Origin: a virus
Taxonomy: Duplodnaviria > Caudoviricetes
DNA: 64,000 nucleotides
Direction: 5' to 3' (one strand)
Virus record (IMG/VR): IMGVR_UViG_3300033475_000014
Span: 1-64,000 of that record
Part shown: positions 1,027-46,031 of the stretch, in pieces
How the letters are laid out: each line of letters opens with the position of its first letter
Position numbering within the stretch: position 1 is the first letter of the stretch
Translations under genes and position numbers: made by a program
Notes under the pieces: generated by a model
What the model was told of the DNA's origin: nothing
What the model saw: the letters and a program-made list of their open reading frames with translations, nothing else
Databases searched by the model: none

Positions 1027-1204
1027 TTGTTTTAGCCTCCACAATTGAGCTTACTTGTTGGCTGATCTCACTGTAGAAGTTACTTCGTAATGTCCATCCA
1101 GTGATGGCACCAGTAGTTACCAGTACCATGGTTACAATTATACTCCACGGTAGAAGTGCAATTGCTACCTGCTTCTTTGTGTATGTAGGTTTTACAGAGC
1201 TCAT
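1001..1204 (-). CDS. Single-TM membrane protein
   Basis: Hydrophobic stretch VAIALLPWSIIVTMVLVTTGAITGW; TAATG overlap with the upstream ORF. Confidence 0.7.
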   Translation of the reverse strand: MSSVKPTYTKKQVAIALLPWSIIVTMVLVTTGAITGWTLRSNFYSEISQQVSSIVEAKTNAKPVKSE

Positions 1205-1302
1205 TAGTTTGGATACCCCGCTGCTACTAACATGATGTAGACAAACCCGTACGCCGCTAGAGCGATAAGAGTCGTCCTTGCTACTGATTTTATATTTTGC
1301 AT
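1204..1302 (-). CDS. 32-aa membrane peptide
   Basis: Read by eye; SD AAGGAG; MQNIKSVARTTLIALAAYGFVYIMLVAAGYPN. Confidence 0.6.
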   Translation of the reverse strand: MQNIKSVARTTLIALAAYGFVYIMLVAAGYPN

Positions 1303-1360
1303 ATGTTCTCCTTTTTATTTGAGCGGTGGAAGTGCCTTGTGGCGTAAATGGCGTGAGACC

Positions 1361-1390
1361 CTATTCATCTCGTTCCGTTGCTTTGGTCAT
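1361..1390 (-). other. Leader mini-ORF MTKATERDE
   Basis: AAGG-CTT-ATG ACC AAA GCA ... TAG just downstream of a leftward promoter near 1410-1440. Confidence 0.45.
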
Positions 1391-1418
1391 AAGCCTTATT
1401 AAGCTTATGTATATATAC

Positions 1419-1434
1419 TAGCACGGCTGTGCTA
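1419..1434. promoter_or_regulatory. Palindromic operator-like site TAGCAC-N4-GTGCTA
   Basis: Perfect 6-bp IR overlapping an extended -10; similar site at 5536-5551. Confidence 0.45.
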
Positions 1435-1439
1435 TTAAG

Positions 1440-1679
1440 TCAAGCGTTCTGTGGTACTTTCTTTCCGTTTCTTCGGCTGATAGCTCCACCTTTCTTACCG
1501 GCACACATAGGTTTAGTATGAGTAAAGCTGAATGAAGGACAGTTACACTCTTCCCGCTTATAGAATCCCCCTGTAGTTCCCCGTACACCTCCAATTTTTC
1601 CGATCTCTCGGAAGAAGTTAGGATTCTTCTCTAAATTACGCTTCGCTGCCTTTAATCCTCCAGTGCGTGTTCCTGATAT
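1440..1679 (-). CDS. KGG-motif small basic protein (probable ATA start)
   Basis: SGTRTGGLKAA...FFREIGKIGG..GTTGGF...AGKKGGAISRR resembles (from memory) MAGTKAGGxKAA proteins of Saccharibacteria; ATA sits at the expected Met position. Confidence 0.7.
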   Translation of the reverse strand: MSGTRTGGLKAAKRNLEKNPNFFREIGKIGGVRGTTGGFYKREECNCPSFSFTHTKPMCAGKKGGAISRRNGKKVPQNA

Positions 1680-2504: not shown

Positions 2505-2705
2505 TTAAGTAGCCTCCTTTATGGTTATGGACTCCCCGTCCTTTGTCCTGACAATTACCGCTGATACAACTCCCATCTTTTGTAGTGAATTTGCCATCAT
2601 GTCTACGTCATACATAGTCATTGAACCCTCTTTGACCTCAATGATGTATTTCTTCGAACGATCAATCTCGTGGGCTTTAAGTATGATGACGTCTATGTTA
2701 GTCAT
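2505..2705 (-). CDS. Hypothetical protein
   Basis: ORF tiles the early operon. Confidence 0.65.
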   Translation of the reverse strand: MTNIDVIILKAHEIDRSKKYIIEVKEGSMTMYDVDMMANSLQKMGVVSAVIVRTKDGESITIKEAT

Positions 2706-3075
2706 TCATATGTTCTCCTAGGTATTTAAGGGGGTCGTCAGATATTACCATCATTTGGAGATGATATTGCCAGCCGTGCCCATAGTCTAGACAATAACCG
2801 CCTGTTACATGATAACCGCCTGGGCAGCTGCTCTCCTCACCCCACAGTGACTTAGCAAATCTGTGATCGAACAAGAGTTCTTTTATTGGAAAGAACCAGA
2901 AACTTGCAGATGATCTAGCGTGGTGGCCGATTATCTGAACGCCGTCACCTACATCAAAATCATCGCCGTAATGAGCTCCCCATTTAGTCACTGGACGTCT
3001 GTCTCGCCAACCGGGTTTCCATCCTCCATCAACGGCCTTTTGGACAGCCGTCTCAAGTATCTCTTCGTTAGTCAT
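2698..3075 (-). CDS. Hypothetical protein
   Basis: ORF tiles the early operon; LFDHRFAKSLWGE...HLQMMV is a phage-type motif. Confidence 0.7.
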   Translation of the reverse strand: MTNEEILETAVQKAVDGGWKPGWRDRRPVTKWGAHYGDDFDVGDGVQIIGHHARSSASFWFFPIKELLFDHRFAKSLWGEESSCPGGYHVTGGYCLDYGHGWQYHLQMMVISDDPLKYLGEHMND

Positions 3076-3397
3076 TCTTGCTCTTCTTACTGTACTTATC
3101 TGATTTAACGTATTTACGCTTAGTAGCTGCAGTACGAGACTTTATTACGATTTTTGCGGGAATGGTTACGCTCTCCTTGGGTGGGGCTACCTCGATGTCT
3201 ATACCTAGATGTTCGATGATAGCGTCTACTTTACCTAGAATGGTAGCCTTCCTGATGGTTTTCATAGGTCGGTAGTAAATGCTGTGGTACGACTGGCTAT
3301 AATCGAGTTCTCTGTACGTTGATATATCCTCAGTCAGTGTCTTCCTAAGTTCTTTAATTTCATCTTCAAGTGCCTCTACTCTGCTTCTAGTAATCAT
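3068..3397 (-). CDS. Hypothetical protein
   Basis: ORF tiles the operon. Confidence 0.65.
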   Translation of the reverse strand: MITRSRVEALEDEIKELRKTLTEDISTYRELDYSQSYHSIYYRPMKTIRKATILGKVDAIIEHLGIDIEVAPPKESVTIPAKIVIKSRTAATKRKYVKSDKYSKKSKND

Positions 3398-3398
3398 A

Positions 3399-3875
3399 TT
3401 ATTTATCCTCCCCTAATAGCACAATGCGCCATTCCTTTTCATGTAGTTTGATAGATTCTTCAGCGTCTTTCCGTGTCTTAAATTTTACAGGTTCACCACT
3501 AACTGCCGTATAACCCACATCTACGCGTATGTTTTTACCATCATAGTAAGGGGAATAGAATTCATCTCCCAGCTTCCACTCATACCCCTTAGTATCTCCC
3601 TTAAGTACTTGTAGGGCTTTGAGGTAGGTCTGATGCTTTTGGACTTCTTGTCTTGTGCGGAAACAGTTTCCTATACTGACACGCTGCGGGTCTACGTTCC
3701 AGGAGTAAGAATACCTGGTGTTTCGTACATCCCCGTTATTGTCAAGATAGTAGTAAGCATCACCTTGCTTAGGCCAAGTATTATCCTCTAAAGCCTCAAT
3801 AAGCTTCTTCTTGTCTTCCTCGGTTAGTTTCTGTGTATCTAGTTCTATAGTTTGGTTTGATAGTTTAAGGTTCAT
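3399..3875 (-). CDS. Hypothetical protein
   Basis: ORF tiles the operon; GDAYYYLD...GNCFRTRQE phage-type motif. Confidence 0.7.
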   Translation of the reverse strand: MNLKLSNQTIELDTQKLTEEDKKKLIEALEDNTWPKQGDAYYYLDNNGDVRNTRYSYSWNVDPQRVSIGNCFRTRQEVQKHQTYLKALQVLKGDTKGYEWKLGDEFYSPYYDGKNIRVDVGYTAVSGEPVKFKTRKDAEESIKLHEKEWRIVLLGEDK

Positions 3876-4246
3876 TATTTCTGCTCCTCGCAGCTAATTA
3901 AGTTAGGGTACCAGCTAAAGAATCCATTACGCCATCCTGTAGTGTCACAACTATATTTCTTACCTACCTGAATCTGGTTATAAAGGTCTGAGCTATTCCA
4001 TTTACCATTCCAAAAGCTATCTGTGTTCTCATATACACCTTTATTTGTGTATACAAGGTACCGAGCGCCTTCACCGCTGCTGTTCACTACTCGCTCACTT
4101 TTACTTACAGTAAATGTAACCTGTTTATGTGTATGTACAGCAATTACACTAACAGTGGCCATTGTGATAAACAAACCTATAGCCAGCACACTTATGACTA
4201 TGTAGAATGCGTCCACAATTTCAAACCCATTTTCTCTATTCCTCAT
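3875..4246 (-). CDS. Membrane-anchored or secreted phage protein
   Basis: N-terminal TM helix; YLVYT..GVYENTDS..GKWNSSDLY motif. Confidence 0.7.
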   Translation of the reverse strand: MRNRENGFEIVDAFYIVISVLAIGLFITMATVSVIAVHTHKQVTFTVSKSERVVNSSGEGARYLVYTNKGVYENTDSFWNGKWNSSDLYNQIQVGKKYSCDTTGWRNGFFSWYPNLISCEEQK

Positions 4247-4257
4247 TATTTACTCCT

Positions 4258-4464
4258 TTATTCCTTATACCCGAACATTTCTACTACTGCTTCAGCAAAA
4301 TTCCTGGCAATAATCAGTATCGGTAGGCAGATTATGCCTGATATAGCTGTCAAGATCATAGCCTCCTTTATATCCATTATTGTAGTAAGCCATGCAAATG
4401 TGATTATTAATGCTATGAGGTATATAGCTGCTAAAAGTTTGTTACTCACACTCCCCACATTCAC
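4258..4464 (-). CDS. Two-TM membrane protein
   Basis: Two hydrophobic helices. Confidence 0.65.
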   Translation of the reverse strand: MNVGSVSNKLLAAIYLIALIITFAWLTTIMDIKEAMILTAISGIICLPILIIARNFAEAVVEMFGYKE

Positions 4465-4505
4465 AGTCTTGTAAAATATTATCGTTATCGTAGTAGCTAG
4501 GGCAT

Positions 4506-4721
4506 TTATACATCTTCAGTCATACCGTTTATGGACTTAATGACTTCGGTCATGTCTAGATCTTCTACAACCTGTTTGTATAGTTCTCGTTCAACATCTT
4601 TAGTGTGTTCTTCTTCTACATAACCATACTTAGCGTTTCCTTCGTCGTCTTCGCCTATCTTCCTGTACTCTTTAGACTTTACTTGCTCTGGTGCCGTCTT
4701 GAGGATAGTAATCTTGTACAT
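4506..4721 (-). CDS. Hypothetical protein
   Basis: ORF tiles the operon. Confidence 0.7.
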   Translation of the reverse strand: MYKITILKTAPEQVKSKEYRKIGEDDEGNAKYGYVEEEHTKDVERELYKQVVEDLDMTEVIKSINGMTEDV

Positions 4722-4723
4722 CT

Positions 4724-5440
4724 CTATTTCTCCTTAGTATCTAATGATTCAATAATCATCTGTGCGTCTACTTGACTCATTTCTCGTGGTTTAGTAATAC
4801 CAAACTCCGTAGCGAGATAGTCTGCACGTTGGCCTTTTTCTATACCGTGTTGGTCAAGTAGGTTGTTAATCATAAATATCTGGTTATCCGTTATGGTCGG
4901 CCCTTTGGTGCCACCTCCATAGGTAAATACTACCTTACCAGTTTTCTCGTTTACGATAGCCAATCCAATAATCTCCGAGGATAGGCTATAGCTAATGTCC
5001 CTTACCGAAAATCTATCGAATGTCTTGTATTTAATCTTGCCGTAGTTGTCCTTGCCAGATTCAACTAGACTTACATCATTCTTGTTCACCCAGATAAACG
5101 GTGCTGTATAAAGCTCCCGGCCAATACCTAGGTTAAAACAAGCACGTTTAAAACTGTCACTTGCTTCTCCCTTTACGGCCTCCGTATTACTTTCAGAACC
5201 AGCGTCCCACTTCCATATCCATTGGCCAAGACCTTCTTTATTGCTATAGATTGCTACGCCACAGTAGATATTACCTTTTAGTTCCTTATGGTCGCGCTGC
5301 CATCCATCAATGCCTAGAGTCTCGTCAAGTATGTTCTGGTCTACTCGTGCATCTTTATATAGAAGAAGTGAAACACCTTTTTCAGTAACAGTAGATACTC
5401 GGCATTCTACCTCGCTTGGTTTAAGTAGCCTAAACTTCAT
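4724..5440 (-). CDS. Rad52/Sak-like single-strand annealing recombinase
   Basis: YKDAR...ILDE...W..DAG...E..KGEASDSFKRACFNLGIGRELY motif. Confidence 0.85.
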   Translation of the reverse strand: MKFRLLKPSEVECRVSTVTEKGVSLLLYKDARVDQNILDETLGIDGWQRDHKELKGNIYCGVAIYSNKEGLGQWIWKWDAGSESNTEAVKGEASDSFKRACFNLGIGRELYTAPFIWVNKNDVSLVESGKDNYGKIKYKTFDRFSVRDISYSLSSEIIGLAIVNEKTGKVVFTYGGGTKGPTITDNQIFMINNLLDQHGIEKGQRADYLATEFGITKPREMSQVDAQMIIESLDTKEK

Positions 5441-5512
5441 TTAGAATCTCCAACTCATCGAAACTATCGACATCATCAGATACTAATGCTTTAATCTTGC
5501 TCATTTGGTCAT
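5430..5512 (-). other. Leader mini-ORFs MTK* (5512-5501) and a coupled 24-aa ORF (5504-5430)
   Basis: GAAAGG-AT-ATG ACC AAA TGA overlapping the next ATG; the second ORF overlaps the recombinase start. Confidence 0.45.
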
Positions 5513-5533
5513 ATCCTTTCTTGTTATCCTTAT

Positions 5534-5562
5534 TGTAGCACGACAGTGCTTGTAAAGCAATA
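5534..5562 (-). promoter_or_regulatory. Leftward early promoter with an embedded palindrome
   Basis: TTGCTT-17-TACAAT with extended TG; AGCAC-N4-GTGCT in the spacer. Confidence 0.65.
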
Positions 5563-5600
5563 CTATTTGCTACTAAAACTCTCTATGATATGATGTATCT

Positions 5601-5710
5601 TGAGTTGCGGTGTATTGCTTTGGTCATATAAAGTCTTGATACTCATCCGCAACTCGCTCCCTATTCCCACAGGGATAGAACGCCCTATGCCCACCCTAGG
5701 GCGTTTTCTT
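5601..5710 (+). ncRNA. Candidate antisense sRNA of phage A
   Basis: TTGCTA-16-TATGAT promoter with extended TG; 9-bp stem 5602-5610/5647-5655 displaying loop GGTCATAT; terminator-like hairpin AACGCCCT/AGGGCGTT followed by T-rich tract. Confidence 0.65.
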
Positions 5711-5816
5711 GTGGTAAAATAAGGGTATGACTAAGAACGATATATACGGAGATGGTATCTAATGGGCACACACATTCCAGCAGGGGCATAATAAGGCTTT
5801 GTGCTATAATGCAAAT

Positions 5817-5964
5817 ATCAGCCGATCCCTATAAGGCTGTAGCACCTTTCTCAAAACACAATATACGATCTCTGCATTAACTTTTTGCAGGGCGTGCTAG
5901 TTTAAATCTGCGGCCTCCCATGAATAATCTTCTACCCTCGATTATTACTAACCGCAGATTTTTT
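5817..5964 (+). ncRNA. Second candidate structured sRNA
   Basis: TGTGCTATAAT promoter (5800-5810); CAGCC/GGCTG, TAGCAC/GTGCTA and CTGCA/TGCAG stems; ATCTGCGG/CCGCAGAT hairpin plus T6. Confidence 0.5.
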
Positions 5965-6217
5965 ATGCCTCGTGACTTTTAATGAAGCTTGTGATATTAT
6001 CTGGTGTAGGAGTTTACATAGTTGTCTCAATACTCTATGTAAGCTCTCAGCCAAACAAACTGGTTTGGGGTATTGCAAAGGACAAGTATCTGCGCTAATA
6101 TAAGAAGCGAGACAACTATGTAACCAATGACTGCCCCACCAAAGGCAGTTTTTTGGATCTAAAAATAACACCCCGGCCGGGTCATTAAACGAACAATCCG
6201 ATTCGTATCTATTACTT

Positions 6218-6523
6218 ATGGAAAGGAATATCTATTTAATGGCGGAAAGCATCGGAGAACTAGTTACTAGTAACAAGAAACTAGAAAAACTAGTAACTAG
6301 TAACAAGTTAACTAGTTTACAAATACAAGAAAGAGCTCTGGGCTACGCAGAGGGTCTTACATTGACGGAAGAGGGTAATGACCTAACAGGATGGTATTGT
6401 AAGGCTTTTAGGACAATAGGCGAGGGACGTTACAAGATGTGCGCCGACGCCGCGAGGAAAGGTGATAAACCTATGTCACTATTTGGATGGCTATTAAAGA
6501 GAGAAATGGAAAAGGCGCTGTGA
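6218..6523 (+). CDS. Hypothetical protein, possible replication-associated protein with internal iteron-like repeats
   Basis: ORF; LVTSNK repeat encoded by ACTAGT DNA repeats. Confidence 0.65.
   Translation: MERNIYLMAESIGELVTSNKKLEKLVTSNKLTSLQIQERALGYAEGLTLTEEGNDLTGWYCKAFRTIGEGRYKMCADAARKGDKPMSLFGWLLKREMEKAL
6258..6316. repeat. ACTAGT palindrome cluster / 20-bp direct repeat
   Basis: AACTAGTWACTAGTAACAAG at 6258-6277 and 6288-6307; five ACTAGT copies in total. Confidence 0.85.
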
Positions 6524-7001: not shown

Positions 7002-7220
7002 TTACTCTATTTTACCATTCTTTAATATCTCATGGGTTTTACGATGAGCTGCAAGCACTTCTTTATGCCTACGTTCGTGGTTTGCCTCAGTTCTACGCTC
7101 AAATGCTCTTCCCCACAGGAATCCTAAAATACCTAATAAGGCAGACGCTATAAGATTCGAGTACAATCCTCCATAAGGGTATCCAAAGTTTTGGTTTAGA
7201 AACGCTACAAACTCTTTCAC
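7002..7220 (-). CDS. Single-TM lysis-region protein
   Basis: TM helix followed by a basic tail. Confidence 0.7.
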   Translation of the reverse strand: MKEFVAFLNQNFGYPYGGLYSNLIASALLGILGFLWGRAFERRTEANHERRHKEVLAAHRKTHEILKNGKIE

Positions 7221-7411
7221 TTCTTTACGTTAGGGAATTGATATACGGCAGCTGTACCGCCGAGCGCGACAATTACCGCTGTAATGATAGATGTTACGTC
7301 TTCTGTACTAAAGCCTCCAGGTGAAAGCTGTACTACTAGCTGAAGAATCTGTAACAATCCAACAACTCCAGCAATAATAGACTTTGTGTAAGGTTTTAGC
7401 TTATCAATCAT
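7217..7411 (-). CDS. Putative holin
   Basis: Two TM helices, next to the endolysin. Confidence 0.7.
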   Translation of the reverse strand: MIDKLKPYTKSIIAGVVGLLQILQLVVQLSPGGFSTEDVTSIITAVIVALGGTAAVYQFPNVKK

Positions 7412-8091
7412 TACACACCTCCTGACACGTATACGGTATTGTTATTGCCATCGTCTGGTCCTTCGGCTACGTATCGGCGTACACCACTATTTGACACATA
7501 ACTAAGCCACACATAACCGTTTGCTGTCACGTACCCATCATAGTTAAATGCTTGCCCCTTAGAATAAACAGCAACAGATGCACTGTTCTTATCTGGTGCA
7601 TTACGTACGTTCAACGCATCTACAAGTACAGTAGCCGTACCTTTCGCATTATGTAGACCACTTGGCGCAGATTCCTGTACAGTAAACTCTTGTGCAATCC
7701 TTGCCCCATCAACTGATAAAGACCAGCCAAGATAAACGGGTGCATAATTCCCGAACCACTGAAGTACTTCGTTAATACTTCGATATACAGGCCGTGCCTT
7801 AGTTTGAGTCTCGCTGTCGTGAATTTCTACCCATCCACCGCCATGGTTAAATGCCCATGCAATGTGTCCTAAGCCCGCGTAAGGCCCTTTAGTGAGCGAG
7901 AAGAAGATAGGCACCCATACACCCACTGGAAGATCACCAGAGCGCTTATCTGGATTTGAGTCCCAAGATGACTGAGCAGTTGGCTTCCTATTTGGAGCGT
8001 TAACCCCATCATCCACATATTTAAGACAGTACCCACGAGTAGCAGGAACATTAATGTTTGGGTAAGTAGATTGTCGTACTTCCGTAGCCAT
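7411..8091 (-). CDS. Endolysin (CHAP/NlpC-like peptidase plus SH3_5-type cell-wall-binding domain)
   Basis: GYCLKYV...GHIA catalytic Cys/His; LNVR.AP...YDGY...NGYVWLSY. Confidence 0.8.
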   Translation of the reverse strand: MATEVRQSTYPNINVPATRGYCLKYVDDGVNAPNRKPTAQSSWDSNPDKRSGDLPVGVWVPIFFSLTKGPYAGLGHIAWAFNHGGGWVEIHDSETQTKARPVYRSINEVLQWFGNYAPVYLGWSLSVDGARIAQEFTVQESAPSGLHNAKGTATVLVDALNVRNAPDKNSASVAVYSKGQAFNYDGYVTANGYVWLSYVSNSGVRRYVAEGPDDGNNNTVYVSGGV

Positions 8092-9614: not shown

Positions 9615-9899
9615 GTGCGAGGTATGCAAAGAGTTATAACACCTGAACAAGGACGTGTACTCGTAAAACTTGATACATCTGAGTATGGTGAGGTACCAGT
9701 GCCTGAAAAAACCTATGATAGTGTGACAAGCGGTACTATCCTAGCAATCAATGAGAACGATGTAGATTACCAATATTTAGTAGGTCGTAAAGGCTACTGG
9801 AAATTGTACAAAGACGATCTACGTGTAGCGAAGCTCCCTACTGGAGAGAAACTAGCACTTATATTAATTAAAGATATTGATGGGACATCCGAAGAATGA
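9615..9899 (+). CDS. groES: GroES-like co-chaperonin
   Basis: P..GRVLVK...G.ILAI...VG...Y...E.LALI.I.DI pattern; ATGA overlap with groEL. Confidence 0.75.
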   Translation: MRGMQRVITPEQGRVLVKLDTSEYGEVPVPEKTYDSVTSGTILAINENDVDYQYLVGRKGYWKLYKDDLRVAKLPTGEKLALILIKDIDGTSEE

Positions 9900-11419
9900 A
9901 AGCAACCGACATTGTAACTGAGAGAGATGTACTACAGAATAAAATCGGTAGGGCTAGCGAGCAAGTATATAATGTAGCTAAAGCAGCCTATGGCCCAAAA
10001 GCAGGGAATGTTATTGTAGGATTTAAAACAGGCGCTCCACTTCTCTCTAGGGACGGTGTGACCAATATTAAGAGAATTAAACTCGCCGACCCTATCGAAG
10101 ACGATATTGCTAAGGTTATTGTTACCGCTTCTGAGAAAAACAACCAGAAGGTGGGTGATGGTACGACAGCAGTTGTTATACTCTCGCACCATCTTCTACA
10201 GGCCGCTCGTAAGCTTGAGAGCAAGGGAGTGAATCCTATGGAAGTTTCAGAAAAACTCCGCCACGCTGAAAAAACAGTTATTGAATACATTGATTCAGTT
10301 AAGAAGAAAACCACCGAAGAAGACCTTACTAAGGTAGCTACCGTATCATCAGGCGACCCAGAACTAGGCGCAATGATCTCTGATGTACTCCAGGAGGTTG
10401 GCGTAGATGGCGGGGTAATGATTGAGCAATACGAAGGGCTTGGTGTCCATAACGATATTGTTGATGGCTTCTACTTCCCCCGTGGGTATAAAGATACTGC
10501 TCTTATTAACGACCAGTCTTCTAATCAATCTCTCCACAAGGATGTAGCTATTCTTATTTCTAATAAAGTATTCAACACAGAAGTAGAAATCGCCCCCGTC
10601 ATTAATGAGATCGTCCGTGCAGGATATAAAGAACTTATCATCGTGGGTGAGGTGAATAACGCCGCTCTTGAAACACTCTTAATGTCACGCGCTAAAGGAC
10701 TTCTTCTAGCTGTTCCCGTAGACCCTCCCTACACTGTGGGCGGTCGCACTCTATTTTTAGACGATATTGCTATTAAAACAGGTGCAACCGTATATGATGG
10801 GGTTAATTTCTCTGTAGAGAATCATTTAGGGTTCGCTAGTGAAGTTCTAGTAACTGAGCACTCAACTACTATCCTAGAGGGCGACAGTGAAAAAGAGCTT
10901 GTAAAAGACCGTATCAAAAGCCTTAAAGAACAACTCAAAGACGAAGAACACCCACAGGCCATTCAATTCATTAAAGAACGTCTTGCACGCCTTACGGGTA
11001 AAATGGCTATTATACGCGTAGGTGGAGCTATTGAGTTTGAGCGTGAAGAGACTAAGCTACGTGTTCAAGACGCAGTATGCGCTGTACAGTCTGCTATGAA
11101 AGACGGAATCTTGCCAGGGGGTGGCTCTACTCTTGCTCGCGTAAGTGGTACCGAGTTTGACGAAGCGTTTAAACAACCATTTAAAGTTCTCTTCGATAAT
11201 GCAGGTCTTAACCCAGAATCTTACTTAGCCCGTTTAGAAGACGCAGAAGTGTGGCAAGGATTTAATCTCCGAAACATTACAGAGAAACCTGTGGATATGC
11301 TTACAGAAGGCGTTATTGACCCATCTTTGGTTATCACTGAGGTTGTCACTAACGCTGTCGCATTAGTAAGGGGTCTTATTACAGCAAGCGCCGCTTTGCC
11401 TGACCCAGAAAAGGAGTAA
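9896..11419 (+). CDS. groEL: GroEL-like chaperonin (divergent, no GGM tail)
   Basis: YGPKAGNV, RDGVT, VGDGTT, R.ARL.GK.AIIRVGG, RVQDAV.A, GILPGGG, GVIDP motifs. Confidence 0.95.
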   Translation: MKATDIVTERDVLQNKIGRASEQVYNVAKAAYGPKAGNVIVGFKTGAPLLSRDGVTNIKRIKLADPIEDDIAKVIVTASEKNNQKVGDGTTAVVILSHHLLQAARKLESKGVNPMEVSEKLRHAEKTVIEYIDSVKKKTTEEDLTKVATVSSGDPELGAMISDVLQEVGVDGGVMIEQYEGLGVHNDIVDGFYFPRGYKDTALINDQSSNQSLHKDVAILISNKVFNTEVEIAPVINEIVRAGYKELIIVGEVNNAALETLLMSRAKGLLLAVPVDPPYTVGGRTLFLDDIAIKTGATVYDGVNFSVENHLGFASEVLVTEHSTTILEGDSEKELVKDRIKSLKEQLKDEEHPQAIQFIKERLARLTGKMAIIRVGGAIEFEREETKLRVQDAVCAVQSAMKDGILPGGGSTLARVSGTEFDEAFKQPFKVLFDNAGLNPESYLARLEDAEVWQGFNLRNITEKPVDMLTEGVIDPSLVITEVVTNAVALVRGLITASAALPDPEKE

Positions 11420-43740: not shown

Positions 43741-44011
43741 ATTCATTACCCACAAGGGATGGCCTCAGCCTACCCAAAGTCAACTATTACCCCAGTGTGA
43801 CGCCACCCTTTGTGAATAACGAACATGCATACCTTAGTTCACTAATCCCTCCAGTAGGTAGTTGTCGCATTTCGATAAACTGTCGGCTCTATATAAATCT
43901 TTAGCCCGTTCGTAATGCTTCATACTTCCACCATCTCTTGGTAGTAGTTACTTCGTGGCGTTTACCACTCAGTTCTTGCAAATGAATTGTTAAGGTCTTA
44001 CACCTTTGGAC

Positions 44012-44037
44012 ATATCAATCTGCAATTGGTACATCCA
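44012..44037. repeat. 26-bp exact direct repeat, copy 1
   Basis: ATATCAATCTGCAATTGGTACATCCA, also at 44482-44507. Confidence 0.95.
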
Positions 44038-44145: not shown

Positions 44146-44157
44146 AAAGTAGTCTTA

Positions 44158-44198
44158 GTTTACAAAACAGCTGCTCTAACCAGCTGAGCTAAAGCGGC
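44158..44198 (-). pseudogene. 5' half of tRNA-Thr(UGU); att-like site
   Basis: GCCGCTTTAGCTCAGCTGGTTAGAGCAGCTGTTTTGTAAAC; tRNA similarity stops 2 nt past the anticodon loop. Confidence 0.85.
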
Positions 44199-44207
44199 AC
44201 TTACGCT

Positions 44208-44236
44208 ATTTTAGCAGTGGTTGGCTGTAAACTCAA
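44208..44236 (-). promoter_or_regulatory. Promoter driving the half-tRNA
   Basis: TTGAGT-17-TAAAAT with extended TG. Confidence 0.75.
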
Positions 44237-44447: not shown

Positions 44448-44483
44448 ATTGACCTTAGTCCCCTTCTTTGCTATGATATAAAT

Positions 44484-44534
44484 ATCAATCTGCAATTGGT
44501 ACATCCAGCCTCGTCATGAGGGCTGGTATTTTTT
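44484..44534 (+). ncRNA. Candidate ~50-nt antisense sRNA of phage B
   Basis: TTGACC-17-TATGAT promoter (44449-44477) with extended TG; repeat copy 2 forms its 5' end; CCAGCC/GGCTGG hairpin plus T6. Confidence 0.7.
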
Positions 44535-45188: not shown

Positions 45189-46031
45189 ATGTTGCTATCT
45201 GAAGCGATAAGCGAGTTTATTAGATATAAGGTCGTGCGCCGTGGTTCTACCCGCGATACTGAGATTACCTACCGAAGCACTATGAATGGGTTCCTTAAGT
45301 GTGTCGGGGACATTCAAGTAGAAGATTTAACAATTTACACAATAGATTCTTATGCCGATGAGCTATCTCTTAAAGGATACATGCCTAAAACATATCATAA
45401 CAAGATGGCTACTGTTAGAAGCTTTGTAAGATTCCTCTATGCTAAGGACCTTACTAACATACGACCAGAATCTGTAGAACTCCCTAAGTCCGTAAGTCCC
45501 GAGGCTAACTTCCTCTCCCCTGCCGAACAAGAGGTACTGTTATCTGTTATTAAGAAGCCACGTGATCTCGCTATTGTGCGGGTGATGATAGCAAGTGGTG
45601 CCCGAGTGTCAGAACTTACTAATCTGAAATATGACGACTTCTACATTGACTCGATCGTTATCCAGCACGGTAAGGGCGGGAAATCTCGTCCTACTTTTTT
45701 AACTGAACGAGCTGCAGAGAGTTTACAAAACTACCTAAAAACTAAACGAAGAACAGAGTACTTGTTTACAAATAGTTTTGGCGAGAAGCTATCGCGCCAG
45801 TATGTAGCAAGGATAGTCTCACAGTACGCCTCTGACGCTGGTATCGGTAAGAAAGTGACCCCTCATACACTGAGGCACTCATTTGCGACGAATATGCTGC
45901 AGAACGGTGCCCGGGTAGAAATAGTCCAGCCGTTAATGGGGCATGCAAATATTAGGACCACGCTTATATATGCGCACTTCACTAACAATTATCTTAAAGA
46001 AGAGTACCAGAAGTACGCAAGCAAGGCTTAA
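45189..46031 (+). CDS. int: Tyrosine recombinase/integrase (XerC/D-like, no arm-binding domain)
   Basis: GARVSEL, GKGGK.R, HTLRHSFAT, MGHANIRTT.IY; SD AAGGAG. Confidence 0.95.
   Translation: MLLSEAISEFIRYKVVRRGSTRDTEITYRSTMNGFLKCVGDIQVEDLTIYTIDSYADELSLKGYMPKTYHNKMATVRSFVRFLYAKDLTNIRPESVELPKSVSPEANFLSPAEQEVLLSVIKKPRDLAIVRVMIASGARVSELTNLKYDDFYIDSIVIQHGKGGKSRPTFLTERAAESLQNYLKTKRRTEYLFTNSFGEKLSRQYVARIVSQYASDAGIGKKVTPHTLRHSFATNMLQNGARVEIVQPLMGHANIRTTLIYAHFTNNYLKEEYQKYASKA

Follow-up and report, generated by a model that had tools for sequence, protein, structure and literature searches.

The sar RNA of phage P22, short and equipped with a promoter and an intrinsic terminator of its own, base-pairs to the region where ribosomes bind a phage mRNA. 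In phage P4, the CI negative regulator of the early (left) operon is an RNA and not a protein, and its target boxes are repeated in the leader. The specificity of the c4 RNA changes between related phages. In the IstR-1/tisB pair, a divergent small RNA (sRNA) base-pairs with the mRNA of a short hydrophobic ORF at a position well ahead of the ribosome-binding site. The sar RNA, which belongs to the immI region of P22, is assigned a role in lowering the translation of phage mRNA (PMC2629481, PMC12197685), and lambda OOP is described as a small terminated phage transcript that lowers phage gene expression by pairing with mRNA (PMC12197685). The c4 RNA of P1/P7, as summarized in PMC8546580 (citing Citron and Schuster 1992, PMC312442), acts in trans as an antisense RNA by means of short boxes near the ribosome-binding site.

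Here we analyze a predicted sRNA gene (5601-5710) in the first 64 kb (hereafter, the window) of a viral DNA record of 76,769 bp. Like sar, this sRNA is short, has a predicted promoter and terminator of its own and would pair at a ribosome-binding region. However, sar is encoded opposite the ant leader, which it overlaps and which is its single target, whereas the window sRNA overlaps neither of its two targets: its gene lies upstream of the -35 (5555-5560) of the leftward early promoter P_L1, so that an overlap of the sar type was not found. In addition, one of its targets is 4.2 kb away, its seed is placed within a hairpin, and its targets belong to early recombination and accessory operons, while the target of sar is an antirepressor gene. 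With c4 it would share the trans antisense repression of a phage operon via short complementary boxes. In contrast to it, c4 is a 77-base RNA that is processed from the transcript of its target, has two loop boxes and controls antirepressor synthesis in a plasmid prophage; the window sRNA is a predicted primary transcript with one seed, opposite to divergent operons and with no sign of lysogeny. No covariance match to the Rfam family of C4 antisense RNAs was obtained, and processing from the same transcript does not apply, since the targets are on the opposite strand. P4 CI is cut from the leader of the transcript that it controls and causes premature termination, whereas the window sRNA is separate, divergent and directed to a translation start. 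OOP is cis-antisense to the 3' end of cII and leads to RNase III cleavage, in contrast to pairing at a ribosome-binding site. The likeness to IstR-1/tisB concerns target 2 only, which precedes a 33-aa hydrophobic ORF; the window sRNA gene is 4.2 kb away from it and has no Rfam match. The window sRNA is therefore nearest to P22 sar and P1 c4 by mechanism and to P4 CI by role, and it is a member of none of these families.

The record and its phage group

Protein comparison with four related records showed that ~1-44.5 kb of the window matches a phage group of roughly 39-41 kb. This GroEL-type part encodes a phage GroES/GroEL pair (9615-11419, plus strand; a GroES-like protein and GroEL), and it also contains a lysis cassette (7002-8091) and a long leftward block of virion genes. 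The 45.2-76.8 kb part of the record carries separate virion genes and the sole integrase gene of the record (45189-46031); it has almost nothing in common with the GroEL-type relatives, and the integrase region is not syntenic with them. The record appears to be a composite of a GroEL-type phage (1-44500) and a second phage (45189-76769), and a tRNA-like fragment (~44150-44210) sits between both parts. Such a record could be a chimeric assembly, or one element inserted into the other.

Relatives for comparison were found via the phage GroEL, the identity to the window protein being 98% for L200, 90% for L195, 61% for L205, 62% for L207 and L208, and 45% for L213. The protein database contained 368 GroEL relatives at E <= 1e-100; among the 120 relatives listed, many were on contigs of 30-45 kb, and identity fell to about 48%. 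Judged by these sequences, the GroEL relatives mark a large uncultured phage group. In species genomes, the sole match to the phage GroEL was a bacterial GroEL with 30% identity, and therefore no prophage relatives were found there.

Rightward of the sRNA gene, a second unit was observed (5802..6156, plus strand), in which a TG-extended -10 (5802-5810) precedes a structured non-coding RNA or leader of ~340 nt (~5817-6156; z -4.45). It contains terminator-like hairpins at 5904-5965 and 6129-6156, has no Rfam match and lies outside the pairing described below. Of its hairpins, three persist in L200 and L195, where 6 pairs differ in both bases. The unit as a whole might serve as a long leader for the other early arm. 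Further downstream, two 20-nt repeats located 30 nt apart, each with a 13-nt palindrome, were found at 6258-6307, in the 5' part of a 101-aa ORF (6218-6523) for which no match was obtained in Pfam or PHROG. In sequence, these repeats look like iterons or an operator.

A predicted small RNA and its two complementary leaders

The features of the control region are collected in Table 1. The sRNA promoter is arranged back to back with P_L1. The preliminary description of this DNA had proposed a plus-strand RNA bounded by a promoter and a terminator; the promoter scan, the terminator and the predicted fold bore this out, and an sRNA of roughly 110 bases is most likely made by the phage. The 5601-5709 segment folds with -42.1 kcal/mol (z -5.7), a value that was equalled by 0 of 200 shuffles. 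The promoter scan lists the terminator at ~5687-5704; by eye, its arms are 5679-5687 and 5697-5705, followed by a T tract to about 5710. The seed had been placed in the apical loop of a 9-bp stem. The stem was recovered (5602-5610 with 5647-5655), but the single open loop was not: the 36 nt enclosed by the stem form a weak inner helix that leaves a 6-nt apical loop (5623-5628), and so the seed is partly engaged in A-U and G-U pairs and not fully open. The sRNA is 96% identical in L200, in whose inner helix one change converts a G-U pair to an A-U pair. A 1-nt indel with respect to L200 shifts the sole ORF across 5601-5710, which is therefore considered non-coding. A search of the whole window against Rfam yielded no family at gathering thresholds, and rli36 was the only match on 5400-6300 at E<=10 (E 4.6, judged to be due to chance).

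Table 1. Features of the control region in the window, and complementarity between the corresponding units and first genes of related phages.
Feature	Position	Strand	Description
sRNA promoter	5567..5594	+	TTGCTA-16-TATGAT; -35 5567-5572, -10 5589-5594, upstream TG; promoter scan 9/12 matches
Predicted small RNA, ~105-110 nt	5601..5710	+	Stem-loop 1 5602-5655; small hairpin 5658-5675; terminator 5679-5705 and U tract
Seed	5615..5629	+	Within stem-loop 1; 5619-5629 predicted to pair with leader 1, 5615-5628 with leader 2
P_L1, leftward early promoter	5532..5560	-	-35 5560..5555, 17-nt spacer, -10 5537..5532, TG-extended; spacer palindrome 5537-5550
Target 1, 11 nt	5504..5514	-	Last Shine-Dalgarno base through A of first-cistron AUG
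First cistron, early-left operon	5430..5504	-	24 aa, acidic; overlaps start of Rad52/Erf-type gene
P_L2, second leftward promoter	1415..1443	-	TTGACT, 17-nt spacer, TAGTAT with TG; palindrome 1420-1433
Target 2, 14 nt	1378..1391	-	About +18 to +31 in the transcript from P_L2, directly after the 5'-terminal hairpin
L195, complementarity to own first gene			15/17 nt (exact 8+7), spanning Shine-Dalgarno
L205, complementarity to own first gene			9 nt
L207, complementarity to own first gene			11 nt
L208, complementarity to own first gene			11 nt + 6
L213, complementarity to own first gene			9 nt + 4

Terminator loops of the phages compared contain CCCAC(CC) despite their differing stems. This was observed in the window (5688-5696, and also 6135-6142 in the downstream RNA), L195 (~709-716), L205 (~1808-1816), L207 (~1129-1137, minus strand) and L208 (~5477-5487). 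No consistent complementary partner for the CCCACCC loop was found among the phage loci, and the loop may be a contact for a protein or a host RNA.

Transcription from P_L1 is predicted to start near 5525. Its leader has only about 20 nt: the Shine-Dalgarno sequence occupies 5520..5514, and 9 nt separate it from the AUG (5504..5502) of the first cistron, which is followed by the leftward gene of a Rad52/Erf-type single-strand annealing protein (4724-5440). The first cistron is kept in L200, as 26 aa and ahead of a different downstream gene, and in L195 the same ATGAGC start directly opens a 187-aa Erf-like gene. The 5499-5607 segment is the sole non-coding stretch that still aligns with L195 (79%). 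Target 1 was at the top of 80 gene starts by exact complementarity to the sRNA, and its net pairing energy, after opening costs, is a modest -5.8 kcal/mol. Both target sites had been described as the starts of mini-ORFs, MTK* (5512..5501, minus strand) and MTKATERDE* (1389..1360, minus strand). These ORFs exist as written, but the 5504 site is not the leader of a mini-ORF: it is the spacer that separates Shine-Dalgarno sequence and AUG of the real first cistron. The MTK AUG lies 1 nt past the GGA of the Shine-Dalgarno sequence, which is too close for normal initiation, and the paired segment spans the start of the real, conserved cistron. This speaks against the proposed action via mini-ORF start codons in the window.

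The P_L2 module, beginning with its -35, has 96% identity to that of L200; upstream of the -35 the similarity ends abruptly. The P_L2 leader opens with a 5'-terminal hairpin of 8 bp (1389-1408). The net energy of pairing at target 2 is -9.3 kcal/mol after opening costs. About 75 nt downstream of target 2 there is a 33-aa hydrophobic ORF (~1202-1303, minus strand) with a strong Shine-Dalgarno sequence; its sequence would suit either a small membrane protein or a peptide of toxin-like character. Since target 2 is far from the next strong ribosome-binding site, any mode of action there is a guess. The perfect palindrome AGCAC-N4-GTGCT has only two copies in the record, one in each spacer of the two leftward early promoters. 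Its right half coincides with the extended -10 motif of this phage, also used at 5800-5810, and it is not preserved in L195. The palindrome might serve as an operator or might result from paralogous promoters combined with the extended -10 motif.

The exact repeats reported for the loop segment were confirmed: 1378-1391 repeats the 14-mer found at 5615-5628, and 5504-5514 repeats the 11-mer found at 5619-5629. Their 10-mer core occurs exactly three times in the 76,769-bp record (1382, 5504 and 5619), always on the plus strand, and the expected count for a given 10-mer on both strands is about 0.15. As the 1378 copy shares 5615-5628 and the 5504 copy shares 5619-5629, the two matches outgrow the core on opposite sides. 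Nowhere in the genome does the sRNA have a match longer than the 14-mer (about 0.05 expected). The 11-mer alone is at chance level genome-wide, where four 11-mers were seen. When the shuffled sRNA was compared with the 33-nt leader 1, 11 nt were reached in 4 of 5000 cases, and 14 nt were reached with leader 2 in 0 of 5000. A duplex scan of the genome with the whole loop was unspecific, the two targets ranking about 5th and 11th. The case rests on the position of the matches and on the relatives.

A one-mismatch copy of the box was observed at 44005-44015, in a third early leftward leader, where it again starts a mini-ORF. This near-copy abuts a site (44012-44037) that belongs to another repeat: a second small RNA unit (44482-44507), with a promoter, a 26-nt free 5' end and a terminator, has the sequence of this 5' end repeated exactly at 44012-44037 in that leader. 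In L207, counterparts of both sRNAs were found in one control region, with an analogous 15-nt repeat near 835-915 of the locus.

The unit and its complementarity in related phages

The comparison covered six lineages with five independent seed families. A promoter-hairpin-terminator-type unit divergent from the early-operon promoter was present in all six. In the relatives, the fold of the unit is a long stem that encloses 25-50 nt of weak pairing (z -3.8 to -9.1). Promoters precede it in L195, L205, L207, L208 and L213, most of them with an extended -10. A terminator with a CCCAC-type loop ends or follows the unit in five of the six lineages, and none was seen in L213. The unit of L213 was recognised via the repeat itself, which is an ascertainment bias, while the others were recognised first by position and architecture. 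In L200, the three boxes and the sRNA are kept at 95-96% identity and the intervening genes are replaced. In L207, the whole module is inverted along with its operon. No unit was recognised in L209/G004 and L210, the control region of G004 probably spanning the ends of its record.

The hairpin interior of each of these relatives is complementary to the first gene of its own early operon (Table 1), and the seeds cover the Shine-Dalgarno sequence in L195, L205, L207, L208 and L213. L205 contains three more copies of the box, and for two of these the location is the ribosome-binding window of another leftward gene, which mirrors the two targets of the window. As in trans-encoded sRNAs that occlude ribosome-binding sites, a short seed faces the region from the Shine-Dalgarno sequence to the AUG, and seed and target change together in the relatives. 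As a separate observation, L205 carries a 1633-bp tandem duplication (2588-5853) of three genes plus their leader box.

The complementarity was evaluated in several ways. A cross matrix of RNAs and leaders gave -21.7 to -23.0 kcal/mol for the cognate pairs versus -8 to -19 elsewhere; the only exception was the window/L195 pair, which has a common seed. The longest exact matches between seed and leader in the six lineages were 11, 8+7, 9, 11, 11 and 9 nt, and the corresponding shuffle tests gave p = 0.0008, 0.05, 0.013, 0.0012, 0.003 and 0.015. The least biased of the pairing tests was the rank by longest exact match among all gene starts (21-80 per locus): the adjacent first gene came first in five of the six lineages, and in L205 it tied with two genes that bear extra copies of the box. 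RNAcofold was unsuited to this pairing, since pairing of loop and leader requires the closing stem to be opened and target 1 was missed; it was replaced by energies calculated from the duplex and the opening of both partners. These net energies were favourable (-5.8 to -9.3 kcal/mol). The cross matrix, shuffles and ranks support the earlier proposal of complementarity between the loop and the leaders of both leftward early transcripts, and the co-variation of loop and targets, on which that proposal had been made to depend, was positive in the same three analyses. Since the relatives keep the design with different yet matching sequences, the pairing is probably real.

Other searches were of little use for tracing the locus. 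In 'near' mode, BLAST of its DNA against the phage collection gave only an unrelated match of 69 nt, and in 'distant' mode there was no match. The annealing protein was discarded as a lineage marker: it retrieved 80 loci in which only the coding part aligned, and the gene is mobile. An exact 15-mer scan of viral contigs gave 114 matches, essentially all due to chance, and a 20-mer of the leader was found among viral contigs in that of L195 only. A 13-nt match of the L195 RNA in the middle of an ORF, in a structural gene of its own genome, was also judged to be a chance match.

Mode of action, alternatives and significance

We propose, with a probability of about 0.7, that 5601-5710 encodes a stand-alone sRNA that pairs with two early leaders, limiting or shutting off both operons. 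Sequence features, folds and co-evolving complementarity were observed directly, whereas transcription of the sRNA, repression as the effect of pairing, and its timing are inferred. The sRNA would be transcribed rightward from the promoter back to back with P_L1, and the interior of its first hairpin would anneal to the 5' end of the early mRNA made from P_L1, reaching from the Shine-Dalgarno sequence as far as the start codon. The duplex at target 1 would block ribosome loading on the first small cistron and, through translational overlap and lost ribosome cover, would lower expression of the recombination gene and probably of the remaining genes in the operon. With four more bases at its opposite end, the seed would pair with the P_L2 leader, where an effect on mRNA stability or on a standby or upstream loading site would be more likely. 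Pairing with both leaders thus points to a negative regulator of two early operons in a GroEL-encoding phage of ~40-44 kb.

The preliminary description had viewed this RNA as immunity-like, by analogy with P1/P7 c4 and P4 CI, and as acting in place of a protein repressor by way of mini-ORF translation and polarity. An immunity factor of this type would keep a prophage silent. The pairing itself, which is supported, would suit such a role, and so would the integrase in the record and the fast joint change of seed and target, which resembles the P1 versus P7 immunity specificities. Four relatives of 39-41 kb, rated 97-100% complete, encode no tyrosine integrase, no serine recombinase and no HTH_3 protein; the lack of an HTH_3 protein agrees with an RNA replacing a repressor, but that of both recombinases speaks against a prophage state, and the integrase of the record is located in its non-syntenic second half. 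Furthermore, the paired segment contains no upstream AUG in L205, L207, L208 and L213, so the idea of upstream ORFs and polarity is not general, and it is also not needed; in the window, the MTK AUG adjacent to the GGA weakens it further. We consider this immunity role unlikely. As there is no sign of lysogeny in the relatives, we read the sRNA as an early-gene limiter or shut-off acting during infection, and not as prophage immunity.

Quite improbable, in our judgement, is that the region acts mainly in cis as a leader of the rightward genes, with three serial terminators in 5601-6156, conditional readthrough and the 110-nt RNA as a by-product. A second promoter and two more terminator-like hairpins do precede the first rightward ORF (6218), and the downstream structured RNA is conserved; however, such a leader leaves unexplained why the hairpin interior tracks the ribosome-binding site of the divergent gene in every lineage, and in L205 the terminator runs into a convergent gene, so that there is nothing to lead into. 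The repeated box might also be a DNA site for a phage or host protein (a roadblock or repressor), RNA complementarity being a side effect, as all three copies are 13-30 bp downstream of a promoter and the third early leader has the one-mismatch near-copy at 44005-44015. We regard this as very improbable: lineages have wholly different boxes, most of which overlap the Shine-Dalgarno sequence, the orientation always makes the RNAs complementary instead of being constant relative to transcription, and each pair outgrows the common core on a different side. It is hardly credible that the similarity is due to chance or is a passive remnant of a duplicated promoter-leader segment. Matches of 11 nt to a 109-nt query are indeed expected a few times in 77 kb, and the two leftward promoters look paralogous, but five seed families match independently at the same functional position.

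The stand-alone sRNA that we propose belongs to a new RNA family, of a regulatory kind already known from classical phages. Its mechanism class, that of P22 sar and P1 c4, has been known for decades, and the finding is therefore an extension of known biology and no surprise to a specialist. The comparative signal is unusually clean, with lineage-specific seeds that always match the ribosome site of the first gene of their own lineage. More tentatively, and as a rather unlikely reading, it can be suggested that the GroEL phages as a group lack any classical repressor and run their early program with two antisense RNAs (5601-5710 and 44482-44507), one for each early arm, with the fast co-evolving pairs of seed and leader as specificity determinants. 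If this two-RNA reading were true, silencing by a resident or co-infecting phage would be confined to relatives that carry an identical seed, a form of RNA-based heteroimmunity or exclusion without lysogeny genes. If the pairing works, an uncultured phage family would control its early recombination and accessory operons by a dedicated sRNA not listed in databases.
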